Shown here: positions 59,029 to 64,000 of the stretch, in pieces
Numbering within the stretch: the stretch's first letter is position 1
How the letters are laid out: every line of letters begins with the position of its first letter
DNA from: a virus
Virus record (IMG/VR): IMGVR_UViG_3300027749_000060
Coordinates: 45,419 to 109,418 of that record
Reading direction: 5' to 3' (one strand)
Length of the DNA stretch: 64,000 nt
Translations under genes and position numbers: made by a program
The notes under the pieces: generated by a model
Told to the model about the DNA's origin: nothing
Database searches by the model: none
Seen by the model: only the letters and a program-made list of their open reading frames with translations

Positions 59029-61689
59029 TTATTCAAACGTGAATAATTGATCAAATGTAGTTTTTGTTCCGGTATTGTCTCTAATGTCCCAATCCAGAAC
59101 TCCTAATAAGTTATCAACCTTTTGGTCAACAATAGTTGCTTCCATTAGGTCGTTATCAAATGGTAAGTCTTTAAACCATTGTGGTATGTGAGTTTCGTCA
59201 GTTGGATAGCCAACAGATGTAAATCCTAATGGATTTGCTTTTAGTTTACAAACAATAGTTTTCATTCCGTCGATTATGCTCATACTGCGATTGTCGCTAT
59301 TCATACGCCTCAACGAATTCCAATTGATTGCTGCACGTACATGCCCTGGCATATTAGATCTACCTTTACGTTCCTCAAGTTCGGCAAACTTAGTTAAGTT
59401 GTTTACACGTTTAGGTGTACCTTTTTCCCAAGCCGGCCGCTCTTGAAAACTCAATTTAAAAGTTAACACACGTTGGTAGATTTCTTTCTTCTCGGCACCT
59501 GTTAGTACTGCTAATAATAGTTCACTTAAAAAGTCTTGTACAACCTTAGGAGTATCACTACGCTTTAAGTCCAACCCCATTGCCTTTACCTTGCCTAACT
59601 TACCATTGACATTCTGTTTGTTTCCTTCAAGGTCGACAATAAGAACTGCATAGCGTTTCTTTTTAATAAACAACCCTTTACTAGCTACTAGCTCTCGGCC
59701 GCCAACAATAATACTGCCCATTTCTCTTGGACAATGGAATGCTCTTTCCATGAACCCCGGGAAACTGGTATTAACTTGATCGGCGATGTTATCGTACAGT
59801 TCGATGCACATTTCTTCAGTCCACTTCATATTACCAGCAGCAACGTCATCCTTGATAACTGGCCACGCTGAGAAATAAACTGAGTCTGTGTCACCGTAAA
59901 TAATAGAGTCACCTGTATGATCGTACTTGCCTGTTATGCATTCATTGGTATGTGCATCCATATGTCTAGCAATAACACGCCCAGTTAAGGTAGTCGATTG
60001 GCCAATTCGCTTATCAAAAAACCTACAGCCAGGATTAAGAATAGCGCCGTACAAGCTGTTGAGATTAATCTTTTTAACCAGCTGACGTTTGTCCCAGAAT
60101 GCTTTATCTTCATTTGTTTTAGCTTCCTTCTTCTTAGCCTGAAGTTCTTTACGCTCTGCATACCAACGTTCCAGTAATCCGGGCACAATACCTTTAGCAT
60201 CGTACTTAAAGATAGTACCATTGGCACTAAGTATCCAAGGTTGATTGCCTTCGAATACTAAACGCCAAACATCAGCGGCAGACATAGTATCATTACCGCC
60301 GCCCTCCCAGTCAATGGTTATGTCTGTGCCAGGCTCCATATTCATTACACTGGTATATTCTAAGCTACCAAACAAGTTTTCCCAGGCGTCTGCAAAACTT
60401 GAACCTGCATCCATTTTTTCTTTTATGTATTGATCGGTCCTTGTTTGTCTGAGCTGTCCGACAATAGTCTCACATGCCATGTTGAGGGCACGAATAGCCG
60501 AGGGATAGAGCGAGTTGATGTCGATTGCTCCAATCCATTCGTGCATACCCTTTTTGGGGTAAGCAACGTAGGCACCTGCTGCTTGCGTTTCACCTTGTTC
60601 ATCTTGATTACTCCTATTTTGAACTATTAAACCTTGACGATGTGATTCATTAATAATGGCTTGTTCGGTAACAGCCACAGCCCCCATAGTAGTAGGAAGC
60701 AATACAGTATTGTCGTGTGCCAATTCGTTGGCAAGATCAATAAAGCGAAGTTTCTTATCCAACTTGGCCAACAACATGGTGTCTTGCCTGTTGTAGTCAA
60801 TAAATTTAGGAAAATCTTTATTGTATAATTGATCCAATGTACCTTCGTACTGGAGTTTGCGTTCTTCAAGTTCGTACTCGCCGATAGCATCTAAGCTGTA
60901 GCTATGACGTTCTTCATATGTGTATTTGCGATACAGTTGCATATAGTCCATATGCACACGACCAATCAAGTCGAATGTGATGTTTTCAGCACCAAAACGT
61001 TCAAAGGTTCTCTTTTTAGGAAATTGATTCCATAAGCAATAACGACGGGTATCGTCTTTGCTGAGTACTTTGATAGTACGCATTACCATATACGGAACGT
61101 CAAAGCCCTCTGAGTTCCACCCGCTTAGTATGTCTGCATCCTCAATGAGGTCAAGGAATGTTTTAATCATATCATCTTCGCGAGCAAAGATAAAACAATT
61201 ATCAAACTGACTGGCTACTTCTTGTGCAGTATCCCAGCTATAGCTTTTTGGTGGTACTGCTAGTGTAATCAATTTATCAAGCCAAGACAAGTAAACTGAA
61301 ATTGCAGTAATGGGATTAAATGGATCTTCGGGTCTGCTGTACCCGCGCACAGGATCAAAGTCCACCTCAATATCAAAAAAGCAAATGTTCAAATTAGGTG
61401 CATCCTTACCTAAATAGTTTTCTTCTAAACATCTTACCAATGGTTTAATGTCAGATTCCCACAGTTTATTTTTTGGATGTATTTTAATTTCTTTATAGAA
61501 CTCTTTGCCGTTACGAGTACTAAACCTGCTGACAGGCGTACCGTATATGGTTGTAAATTTACCTCTAGGGTCGTCGTAGTAGAATAGATAGTTAGCAGGA
61601 TATTCTTGATATACCCTGCGACCTTCTACTCGTTCTACTACATGAATCCTGTCGTTCTCTTTATCAAAAAGTGCGTCAACATAACTCAT
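59029..61689 (-). CDS. gp43: Family B DNA polymerase (gp43-like)
   Basis: Exonuclease motifs FDIE, GWNSEGFD, YN.QD; polymerase motifs DINSLYPS, K...NSLYG, YGDTDS, KKRY. Confidence 0.96.
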   Translation of the reverse strand: MSYVDALFDKENDRIHVVERVEGRRVYQEYPANYLFYYDDPRGKFTTIYGTPVSRFSTRNGKEFYKEIKIHPKNKLWESDIKPLVRCLEENYLGKDAPNLNICFFDIEVDFDPVRGYSRPEDPFNPITAISVYLSWLDKLITLAVPPKSYSWDTAQEVASQFDNCFIFAREDDMIKTFLDLIEDADILSGWNSEGFDVPYMVMRTIKVLSKDDTRRYCLWNQFPKKRTFERFGAENITFDLIGRVHMDYMQLYRKYTYEERHSYSLDAIGEYELEERKLQYEGTLDQLYNKDFPKFIDYNRQDTMLLAKLDKKLRFIDLANELAHDNTVLLPTTMGAVAVTEQAIINESHRQGLIVQNRSNQDEQGETQAAGAYVAYPKKGMHEWIGAIDINSLYPSAIRALNMACETIVGQLRQTRTDQYIKEKMDAGSSFADAWENLFGSLEYTSVMNMEPGTDITIDWEGGGNDTMSAADVWRLVFEGNQPWILSANGTIFKYDAKGIVPGLLERWYAERKELQAKKKEAKTNEDKAFWDKRQLVKKINLNSLYGAILNPGCRFFDKRIGQSTTLTGRVIARHMDAHTNECITGKYDHTGDSIIYGDTDSVYFSAWPVIKDDVAAGNMKWTEEMCIELYDNIADQVNTSFPGFMERAFHCPREMGSIIVGGRELVASKGLFIKKKRYAVLIVDLEGNKQNVNGKLGKVKAMGLDLKRSDTPKVVQDFLSELLLAVLTGAEKKEIYQRVLTFKLSFQERPAWEKGTPKRVNNLTKFAELEERKGRSNMPGHVRAAINWNSLRRMNSDNRSMSIIDGMKTIVCKLKANPLGFTSVGYPTDETHIPQWFKDLPFDNDLMEATIVDQKVDNLLGVLDWDIRDNTGTKTTFDQLFTFE

Positions 61690-61976
61690 TGTGTAAGCAT
61701 CCTTGTTAATCCTATACTATCAATTGTAATCAGCAGTGAGTAGTTTGCCAGCATGCCAAAAGATCTACGGCTATAACTAGCCCACCCATACATACAACAC
61801 TGAATAATAAAAACAGGATAAATGTAAATAAGAGGCGGATTAGGTACAGTGAGTGCCATAGTGATACTGCATCCAATTGAAATAACCCAAGCCGCAGCTT
61901 CAACGATAAAACGAACAGGGTTAGTTTTATAGTCGTTTTTGATCCACGTAAAAACATTACGGATACTGTCGTTCAA
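61686..61976 (-). CDS. Small membrane protein (about 3 TM segments)
   Basis: Hydrophobic segments; overlaps both neighbours. Confidence 0.7.
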   Translation of the reverse strand: MNDSIRNVFTWIKNDYKTNPVRFIVEAAAWVISIGCSITMALTVPNPPLIYIYPVFIIQCCMYGWASYSRRSFGMLANYSLLITIDSIGLTRMLTQ

Positions 61977-62233
61977 AGTGTCTTGCCTACAGTTTCCAAT
62001 ATAGTATTTAGATCGTCGTGATCGCGATTGGTCTCGCCTAGTTTACTCTTGCTGGCTATCTTAATTGCTTTTTTAAGAATAGCAGGCTTAACTTCAAGTT
62101 CTTCAGCAATTGCTTTGATGGTTTCGTTGAGCCCTGTGCTTAGTGCTTCAACTTCGGCCATTACTTGCATGCCTTCATTGATAATTTGTGTTAGTTTAAT
62201 TTTTTGATCGCCGCTGAACATACGTGCTGTCAT
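61973..62233 (-). CDS. Small dsDNA-binding protein (T4 DsbA/GapR-like)
   Basis: Helical; IKAIAEELEVKPAILKKAIKIA pattern. Confidence 0.6.
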   Translation of the reverse strand: MTARMFSGDQKIKLTQIINEGMQVMAEVEALSTGLNETIKAIAEELEVKPAILKKAIKIASKSKLGETNRDHDDLNTILETVGKTL

Positions 62234-62261
62234 AAAGATCCTTTATAGTGAATTATAGTTA

Positions 62262-62290
62262 ATTATAGATTACTTATTTCACAAAAGCAA
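62262..62290 (-). promoter_or_regulatory. sigma70-like promoter for the DNA polymerase operon
   Basis: TTGCTT-17 nt-TATAAT. Confidence 0.75.
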
Positions 62291-62307
62291 GTGTTTAGAT
62301 AAAAAAA

Positions 62308-62405
62308 GTGCTCACTTTCGAGATTCCCGGTAGCGAATCGGGCCGTCCCGCGCCAGCAGCCGGCGCACACTTAATATAACGCAAAGGTCCTAAGATAGTG
62401 TGTTC
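62308..62405 (-). ncRNA. Candidate structured non-coding RNA of unknown class
   Basis: GC-rich intergenic island with three stems, followed by U7 on the minus strand. Confidence 0.55.
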
Positions 62406-62408
62406 GTA

Positions 62409-62804
62409 TTAACCGTTAATGTAATTTGGATGCGCTTTATTAAACTTGCGCATAATAATGCCAGCTACGCTATTAGCTTCGTTTTCTTCATCACTGCCAG
62501 TTTCGCCGCTGTTGGCATTAAGTTGATCTTCTTGGTGTTGTTTAAAATGAACAAGTTCGTGTGCCAGTGTTCTACAAATATCAATTGGATGTCTGCGATC
62601 TATACCCAAACTAATGGTCATATCTGATGGGGAAAAACTACCAAATGTAGGCTGCTCTTGTTGATTCATTGATTTGAAAATGTTAATTTCAGGTAAGTTA
62701 GTTAGTCCTAGTTCTTCCATGGCCAATGGAAGTAAATCCTTTATTGCACTGTATACAACTTGGTAGGATTCCTTTGATTCAACTAGGAATTCAACAGCTC
62801 TCAT
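62409..62804 (-). CDS. HEXXH zinc-metallopeptidase-like protein, probably virion-packaged
   Basis: RTLAHELVH...ENEAN; start MRAVEFLVE overlaps the upstream stop (TAATG). Confidence 0.75.
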   Translation of the reverse strand: MRAVEFLVESKESYQVVYSAIKDLLPLAMEELGLTNLPEINIFKSMNQQEQPTFGSFSPSDMTISLGIDRRHPIDICRTLAHELVHFKQHQEDQLNANSGETGSDEENEANSVAGIIMRKFNKAHPNYING

Positions 62805-64000
62805 TATTCTTGATCTCGCCAACGTTTCTCTGCAGAGTCCCAATATCTTCCACCAACTACATTTTTGGTTTCTGTTTTAGATTCTTCATATGGTTGCTCT
62901 TGTGTATCAGGCTCATTGGTAGCCGGTACAACTTGATCGTAGTCTTTCATGGTCAGAGTATTACCATTACTACTTAGATTTACTAGTTTTTCTGCCACAT
63001 CGTGCAAATCTAAGTCAGTTTTTGCATCTTCTCTAGCAAATTCCATTACACGCAATAGCATAGGAACGTCCATGGTGACAGTATCAGTTGGATTAGATGA
63101 TGCTTCTTCGTCTAAGTTTATTAATTTTAGATAGTGGCGCTGTAGATATTCTTTAGCCCATTTTGCATCATCAAATAATGGACCAACACGCACACCTGAA
63201 TGATTTAACACTTCAAATCTTTCGCCCTTGCTACCGTCCGGTCTCATGATATTAACTTTACGTACACGCGGTCTGCCAGATTTAATTTCTTCGCCCTCGG
63301 GAATCATACCATTGCGGGCACTGTCTTCTAATTCTAAGTATGCAGCCTTGGCTTTTTGATAGTTGGTCTCGTCACCAATTTTATCGTAATGTTGCATCAG
63401 GTCGTGCAGTCGATCTGCTTCTTTAATATAATCACGCATGCTCATTTTAGCAGGTTCGGCAGATTCGTTTTTATCTTGCCACCAGTAATTACCGTTAACA
63501 GGTTTTGATTTAGGCAACGATGGTGTTTTATTCAACATACGGCTACGTGCAGCTAGCGCCATTTTTTTTAATGTTTCTGGATCTTTGCCACTTAGATTGG
63601 GATGAGTGGAAGACTGGAAACGTTTAATCCATGTGTCTGGGGAATCGTTTGCAGTTAGTTTACCTTCGTCTATTTGTTGTGCTAGTATGCGTTCGACTTG
63701 TTTAATCCAGCTATTTAAATTATTCGATTCAATACCTTGTGCATTGTTTCCAACCATGCCTGCAACAGAATTAATAGCATCACTTACACGATCAGACCCA
63801 TATTTTAGTAAATCTGGTCGTTTTTCTGTAATGCCCTTAACGATAGCACTTATAACAGAACTATTCGACACGCCTTCCGCCACATTTGACTTATAACTTG
63901 GTTGTGTTTGTGCATCGGTTTCTTGAACTGCGGCTACTAATAATTTATTTCCAGCCTCTATTGCTTTTTCTAATGCTTGTTGTCTACTAGTCCATATTAT
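62804..64000 (-). CDS. Modular putative internal head protein, 5' end outside the window
   Basis: Frame stays open from 63883 to the window end by manual check; recurrent [VIL]xE motifs. Confidence 0.6.
   Translation of the reverse strand: MIWTSRQQALEKAIEAGNKLLVAAVQETDAQTQPSYKSNVAEGVSNSSVISAIVKGITEKRPDLLKYGSDRVSDAINSVAGMVGNNAQGIESNNLNSWIKQVERILAQQIDEGKLTANDSPDTWIKRFQSSTHPNLSGKDPETLKKMALAARSRMLNKTPSLPKSKPVNGNYWWQDKNESAEPAKMSMRDYIKEADRLHDLMQHYDKIGDETNYQKAKAAYLELEDSARNGMIPEGEEIKSGRPRVRKVNIMRPDGSKGERFEVLNHSGVRVGPLFDDAKWAKEYLQRHYLKLINLDEEASSNPTDTVTMDVPMLLRVMEFAREDAKTDLDLHDVAEKLVNLSSNGNTLTMKDYDQVVPATNEPDTQEQPYEESKTETKNVVGGRYWDSAEKRWRDQE

Follow-up and report, generated by a model that had tools for sequence, protein, structure and literature searches.

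Seen beside its relatives, the GC-rich element on the minus strand of the window (the whole stretch of 64,000 nt analyzed here) is one copy of an undescribed, phage-specific family of pseudoknotted RNAs of ~95 nt that is absent from Rfam. Two exposed blocks of this RNA are complementary to directly adjacent segments of 23S rRNA, and we propose, with confidence a little short of even, that the RNA would pair in trans with the 23S rRNA of the host.

The window forms the 3' part of a 109-kb IMG/VR contig. Since this contig is estimated to be only 31% complete at such a length, it should belong to a large phage. All genes around the RNA element lie on the minus strand, and the gap between them contains a patch of ~60% G+C in surrounding DNA of ~38% G+C (Table 1). 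The ORF upstream showed a weak match to M78/IrrE-like metallopeptidases (19 bits, below the Pfam cut-off) and appeared to be a rare accessory gene with only five relatives among viral contigs. The DsbA-like gene downstream (61976-62233, minus strand) shared ~72% nucleotide identity over 120 nt with PA5oct-group Pseudomonas jumbo phages; this was the sole link to cultured phages, and those PA5oct-group phages do not carry the RNA. A previous sequence-only reading of this DNA had described a U7 run and a fresh sigma70 promoter beyond the RNA, and both are present. The promoter was missed by a simple scan, and its -35 box matches at only three of six positions, though relatives keep a promoter at the same place: in many of them TTGCTT or TTGAC, then TATAAT and then a ribosome-binding site are found ahead of the DsbA-like gene. 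A TTGCTTT box ~17 nt before TATAAT was also kept downstream of the RNA in relatives such as L013, L047, L093, L109 and L142, and resembles the MotA box (TGCTT) of T4 middle promoters.

Table 1. Features of the RNA element and its neighbourhood, in order along the minus strand (positions are those of the window)
Feature	Position	Strand	Remark
144-aa ORF, upstream of the RNA	62409-62843	-	TAA stop at 62411-62409
Gap carrying the RNA			175 nt, between the 144-aa ORF and the DsbA-like gene
P1, 5' strand CACACU	62397..62402	-	starts 6 nt past the TAA of the 144-aa ORF; pairs with 62366-62371
CUUAGGAC, invariant unpaired block	62387..62394	-	internal loop between P1 and P1a
P1a region	62372..62386	-	only a weak 3-bp GAC/GUU hairpin in the MFE fold of the window member
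P1, 3' strand AGUGUG	62366..62371	-	
P2 hairpin	62351..62365	-	CGCC / 7-nt loop GGCUGCU / GGCG
P3	62319..62350	-	outer helix CGGGA/UCUCG, internal loop, inner helix CCCG/CGGG, 9-nt loop
P3 loop AUUCGCUAC	62338-62330	-	9 nt
3' tail AAAGUGAGCAC	62308..62318	-	pseudoknot partner of the P2 loop
U7 run after the tail	62301..62307	-	possible termination or 3'-end signal in the window member; not a family feature
Promoter-like TTGCTT-17 nt-TATAAT for the DsbA-like gene	62262..62290	-	outside the RNA
DsbA-like regulator, 86 aa	61973-62233	-	phrog_12534, phrog_639
96-aa ORF, then family-B DNA polymerase	59029-61689 (polymerase)		beyond the DsbA-like gene

Read from 62402 to 62308 on the minus strand, the predicted RNA consists of helix P1, the P1a region, the P2 hairpin, a P3 of two tiers and, at the 3' end, a tail that forms a pseudoknot with the P2 loop. 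The sequence-only reading had proposed a GC-rich multi-stem RNA of ~100 nt at 62405..62308; the sequence is as it described, the relatives covary, and its CACACU...AGUGUG stem is the P1 defined here. From its GCGCC-GGCUGCU-GGCGC hairpin, which corresponds to P2, four pairs are backed by covariation, whereas the fifth competes with P1. For the third stem it had offered two alternatives, of which covariation retained CCCG/CGGG; the GAUUC/GAAUC version had to be given up, the stretch concerned being a conserved unpaired loop, and the outer P3 helix had been overlooked. In most relatives P1a forms a hairpin of 4-6 bp, and CCUUAGGAC is conserved at 98-100% across 129 distinct members. Minimal variants without P1a were also observed (L010, 1213-1292; L035/L036, 1883-1966; L128, L134 and L143); since these carry the CCUUAGGACC block in the terminal loop of P1, P1a appears to be dispensable and the block is still exposed. 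The elements of L074, L076 and L078 (about 579-660 and 1859-1940) keep P2, P3 and a tail ending in GAGCG and lack the 5' domain with CUUAGGAC; they are either decaying copies or a sign of a two-domain origin of the RNA.

To judge by compensatory changes, the pseudoknot between the P2 loop GGCUGCU and the tail segment AGUGAGC is real. A pseudoknot of this kind had been suggested before in a UGCU/AGCA register, which does not fit the compensation of GGGUGCU with GUGACCA found in L054 and L075. In the pairing that we assign, tail A-G-C (62312-62310) meets loop G-C-U (62360-62358), and G62313 pairs with C62356. This register, including the pair between position C6 of the loop and the tail G, is fixed by four independent compensations: besides the one above, GCCAC with GUGGC (L004), GCCACU with AGUGGU (L012) and GCUAC with GUAGC (the L016 and L019 group). 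RNAalifold also chose the loop/tail pairing unaided.

The structure of the other helices was assessed in two ways. One was a covariance model, for which 28 members were aligned under a structure set by hand. From the raw MAFFT alignment, RNAalifold had recovered only the pseudoknot and part of P3, with the variable stems misaligned, and realignment to a covariance model was needed. A search with the model found 55 elements in 83 sources. The window contributed a single element, at 62308-62409 on the minus strand (74 bits, E 1.4e-17). In the resulting alignment 88% of paired cells were canonical, compared with 64% after shuffling, and the covariation score was 0.412 as against 0.110 for shuffled alignments (none of 500 shuffles reached 0.412) and 0.02-0.08 for slid partners. 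The sequence-only reading had made its RNA depend on homologues and their covariation; both were found, with 129 distinct sequences and both-side changes at 23 of the 26 pairs, including all five modelled pairs of P1. The P1a pairs covary in relatives, as do the outer and inner helices of P3, and helix 3 of this alignment (listed for P2) was 100% paired. Before that, pair tables had been anchored on the invariant motifs, independently of the model; since an alignment fitted to a model favors the structure of that model, these tables and the slid controls guard against the bias. In the anchored tables, P2 stem positions 2-4 were 98-100% canonical with CG<->GC and GC<->CG<->AU swaps, and the two pairs closing the AUUCGCUAC loop were 97% canonical with four pair types (GC, AU, UA and CG), whereas partners shifted by one column paired at just 34-68%. 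G.U pairs in P1, P1a and P3 would become A.C mismatches on the opposite strand, and the RNA should therefore be read from the minus strand. On the other hand, the fold of the single sequence was no better than that of shuffles (-29.2 versus -28.8 +/- 3.4 kcal/mol, z -0.13, minus strand), and that of the other strand was uninformative (z -0.60). Thus, it is conservation and covariation among the aligned relatives that exceed chance, and the single fold does not.

The relatives were gathered in several steps. Eighty loci were collected via the DsbA-like protein, many of which contained collinear conserved blocks between variable sequence, and three of these blocks served as a search pattern. At least 120 IMG/VR viral contigs matched this pattern, compared with only two contigs from 185,579 prokaryotic genomes. 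Both of the latter were Bacteroidota MAG contigs, one of Lishizhenia (L207, 14.6 kb) and one of Haliscomenobacter (L208, 183 kb); the neighbours of the RNA are phage-type in both, and the Haliscomenobacter contig carries the DsbA-like gene and PolB. These two contigs are probably binned phage DNA, and they give a hint of a Bacteroidota host. In total, 129 distinct sequences were obtained; the family occurs as a single copy per contig and in the gene-sense strand throughout, and the element studied here is likewise unique in its 109-kb contig. BLAST with two members against 50,697 INPHARED records gave no relevant match to cultured phages, and no description of the RNA family was found in the literature. 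Rfam 15 had no match anywhere in the window at gathering thresholds, in agreement with the earlier reading, which could assign the RNA to no known class; at E<=10, region 62150-62550 gave four matches of 10-13 bits, all far under the gathering threshold, and these are chance hits. As also stated before, the RNA is not a tRNA, since ARAGORN found no tRNA or tmRNA in the window.

The complementarity of two exposed loops to 23S rRNA had been overlooked in the sequence-only reading. The E. coli rrnH operon was used as rRNA reference, the 23S gene being absent from the bins of the two RNA-carrying Bacteroidota MAGs. CUUAGGAC complements E. coli 23S nt 1922-1929 without a mismatch, and the window sequence CTTAGGACC matches 23S 1921-1929 in reverse complement. 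In the P3 loop, UUCGCUAC complements nt 1930-1937, and UUCGCUACC (DNA form TTCGCTACC) is an exact 9-nt complement of 1929-1937. Within the P1a region, CGUUAUA (CGTTATA) is the reverse complement of 23S 1915-1921 over 7 nt, and a likeness to helix 69 in reverse complement is also seen in GGACCGUUAnnnGUUAC, the P1a consensus of the family. 23S 1922-1937 comprises the 3' strand of helix 69 together with its junction to helix 70. In the RNA, the two matches are located where conservation of unpaired sequence is highest, and the 8 + 8 nt that are unpaired meet on the target with no gap and in permuted order, the 5' loop matching 1922-1929 and the 3' loop 1930-1937. In relatives the first block lies in runs of 12-15 nt that cover 23S 1916-1933. 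The longest exact antisense match per member had a median of 12 nt (range 10-15), compared with a median of 9 nt in sense, reversed, complement-only and shuffled controls, and the flanks agreed with the 23S complement at 50-88%, out to -3 and +7. A rough estimate, which is not a computed test, is ~0.03 for a 12-mer anywhere in the rRNAs multiplied by ~0.005 for an abutting 9-mer. By these comparisons the relation to 23S rRNA is beyond chance. All four conserved blocks of the family would thereby be accounted for, the P2 loop and the tail by the pseudoknot and the other two by the adjacent 23S complements.

The two arms differ in how widely they are kept. The CUUAGGAC arm was retained in essentially all members, and the second arm, UUCGCUACC, in 79 of 129, with ~40% of members having other P3 loop motifs. 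One of these, ACGCCAUUC, matches 23S 1968-1976 over 9 nt; the remaining types have just 7-nt matches at chance level. When whole P3 regions were compared by Smith-Waterman alignment, the best match lay in 23S 1895-1985 for 22 of 122 members and 3 of 122 shuffles, a difference that indicates enrichment only, given that the members are related. Duplex energies of the window loops with rRNA (scan of 4.4 kb of rRNA) were within the range of shuffled loops. No sense-strand copy of either target block was found elsewhere in the phage contig, and a phage mRNA target is thus not apparent.

Several further rRNA matches were considered and rejected. A two-block match of P3 loop type B to 23S ~nt 1955-1968 had been noticed by eye, and the best match in an unbiased scan was instead 16S ~nt 710-729; for types B, D and E, complementarity to the helix 70-71 part of 23S was at chance level only. 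CGGCTGCTGGC, found at the P2 loop of the window member, matches 16S 517-527 in the 530 loop in reverse complement. This reading was abandoned, as matches of 10-11 nt occurred in 20-25% of controls and loop variants that covary with the tail lose the 16S match, so that the pseudoknot overrides it. A separate observation is that UUCGCUACCGG (62329-62339, minus strand) can also pair with 16S 716-726, CCGGUGGCGAA, over 11 bp including one G.U; thus, short GC-rich loops easily find rRNA partners if wobble is allowed.

Our preferred reading, which we put forward with reserve and regard as possible, is that large uncultured phages may make an RNA effector whose two pre-organised loops would grip host 23S rRNA at the junction of helices 69 and 70. 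The scaffold of P1, P1a, P2, P3 and the pseudoknot would present two invariant single-stranded blocks, and the CUUAGGAC internal loop and the UUCGCUAC P3 loop would clamp the abutting segments 1922-1929 and 1930-1937. In the mature 50S subunit, 23S 1922-1937 is base-paired and located at the subunit interface, so that access there is uncertain. Nascent or unfolded domain IV should thus be the likelier partner, and the most plausible target would be 23S rRNA before it has folded. Host 50S particles would then be altered in their maturation or in subunit joining. Beyond the family, structure, strand, single copy and complementarity, which the comparisons above establish, we infer the pairing with 23S rRNA, its timing and its effect. 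The consequence is conjecture: the clamp could block late 50S assembly or subunit joining, or have another outcome, such as holding the two sides of the site together, perhaps by bridging a cut that a host nuclease has made. The related idea of a splint for repair gained nothing, as no RNA ligase or RtcB was found in the contig, which is an estimated 31% of the genome.

The main alternative, which we regard as rather unlikely, is that the fold serves some other purpose (as a protein-binding or RNP scaffold, in ligand binding or in anti-defence) and that the 23S complementarity would be the relic of captured antisense rDNA, its core frozen by unrelated selection. It would agree with the outward decay of the likeness to the 23S complement from the invariant core, and with P1a, which looks like a diverged antisense helix 69 hairpin now under compensatory change. 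As it covaries, P1a departs from the helix 69 complement and leaves just ~9-13 nt held constant, a point against the preferred reading. The unexceptional duplex energies and the P3 loop types B, D and E, which have no convincing rRNA match, also point in this direction. However, a relic would leave unexplained why two separate loops abut on the target with no gap in permuted order, and why exactly the complementary blocks stay unpaired and invariant. Furthermore, no partner protein conserved beside the RNA was found in the loci compared; the neighbours are variable accessory genes.

The genomic context bears on another alternative, which seems improbable: a cis element of polycistronic mRNA, either protecting or processing the 3' end of the upstream gene or serving as an rRNA-complementary tether by which ribosomal subunits would stay close to the message and reinitiate on the next ORF, with a logic like that of TURBS. 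In 73 of 112 loci UUAGG follows the upstream stop codon at a distance of 8-18 nt, and in another 29 of 112 that stop codon is the UAG within the conserved CUUAGG. For 90 of 137 contexts, an ORF start is available within 40 nt downstream, and there is no room upstream of the RNA for a promoter of its own. These features would suit such an element, and 3'-end stability, one of the roles raised in the sequence-only reading, is possible as a cis role, although a single copy per genome fits it poorly when these phages have hundreds of gene junctions. The flanking genes argue against it as well, being unrelated between loci on both sides: upstream we found deaminase-like, ferritin, radical SAM, desaturase, SNase and other genes, and downstream either a promoter and the DsbA-like gene, another ORF or a canonical terminator. 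Only three neighbours recurred, all of them downstream: the DsbA-like gene, present at 84 of 137 loci, a 97-aa ORF and the polymerase. Many members have a promoter or canonical terminator between the RNA and the next gene, and the tRNA genes of T4-type phages are packed just as tightly. We propose that the RNA is transcribed as part of the transcript of the upstream gene, and since there is no room for its own promoter, it would probably be released from this longer transcript. The small RNA of the sequence-only reading is among the possible descriptions.

A self-cleaving ribozyme or riboswitch of a new class is very improbable. The compact pseudoknotted fold with few invariant unpaired nucleotides, located between genes in phages, recalls several ribozyme classes. 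However, the ribozyme suggested earlier found no backing in Rfam, where no model of hammerhead, twister, twister-sister, pistol, hatchet or HDV-like ribozymes matched at E<=10. In topology, HDV has a nested double pseudoknot and pistol also differs from the phage RNA, in which the 3' tail pairs with the P2 loop. The pseudoknot and the 23S complementarity already cover all four conserved blocks. Regarding riboswitches, there is no consistent downstream gene or expression platform: the downstream genes are unrelated between loci, and promoters or terminators often intervene. The one exception among the ribozyme and riboswitch models of Rfam was a 12-nt chance match, in which CGGGACGGCCCG (62350-62339, minus strand) resembles one ACGR-loop hairpin of the guanidine-II riboswitch (RF01068; 11.3 bits versus a gathering threshold of 32, 12 of 48 model positions, no second hairpin), and this stretch is a variable stem in relatives.

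Finally, the U7 run (it may end transcripts in the window member) and the shuffle-like fold energy would speak for no more than a complex intrinsic terminator or a patch that is GC-rich by chance. This is refuted as a description of the family and has almost no probability left, because five helices and the pseudoknot covary, just 44 of 137 contexts show a U-run after the tail, four members have a separate canonical terminator downstream and no terminator-like site was called in 61500-63200, all in line with the earlier remark that the RNA is more elaborate than a terminator.

We also compared the phage RNA with known systems. The antisense RNAs CopA/CopT of plasmid R1, RNA I/RNA II of ColE1 and OxyS-fhlA likewise show target-complementary loops on a stable scaffold, and in kissing of the OxyS-fhlA type two loops can contact one target, as proposed for the phage RNA. 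In contrast with these loop-presenting RNAs, the putative target here is a universally conserved part of 23S rRNA and not an mRNA or replication primer, and the phage scaffold has an H-type pseudoknot; there is no homology in sequence or structure, and the pairing is putative. Group II introns likewise use two loops (EBS2/EBS1) on adjacent target segments (IBS2/IBS1), with equal 5'-to-3' order on guide and target, which is the permuted order of the phage RNA as well. The likeness is limited to this logic of target recognition, since the phage RNA has ~95 nt, no catalytic domains and no reverse transcriptase ORF, and ORFs abut it on both sides. The TURBS of caliciviruses are likewise viral elements at a stop/start junction with a conserved rRNA-complementary stretch. 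However, they address small-subunit rRNA from inside the upstream ORF at one gene junction, whereas the phage RNA matches 23S rRNA and has variable neighbours. The 3'-UTR-derived small RNAs of the CpxQ and SroC type likewise begin right after a stop codon with no room for a promoter; they use linear Hfq-dependent seeds and the terminator of the mRNA, whereas the phage RNA is highly structured and most members have no terminator.

Helix 69 and its junction form the central inter-subunit bridge and are invariant across bacteria. One RNA could thus serve whatever the host, and this would explain why the loops are invariant and why the family is so widespread. To our knowledge, bacterial viruses have not yielded a comparable RNA before. 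If the proposed pairing is true, direct targeting of rRNA would be known for a phage RNA for the first time, and it would add a route of host takeover beside protein effectors. Even without a function at 23S rRNA, these phages carry a large RNA family, missing from Rfam, with strong covariation and a proven pseudoknot.
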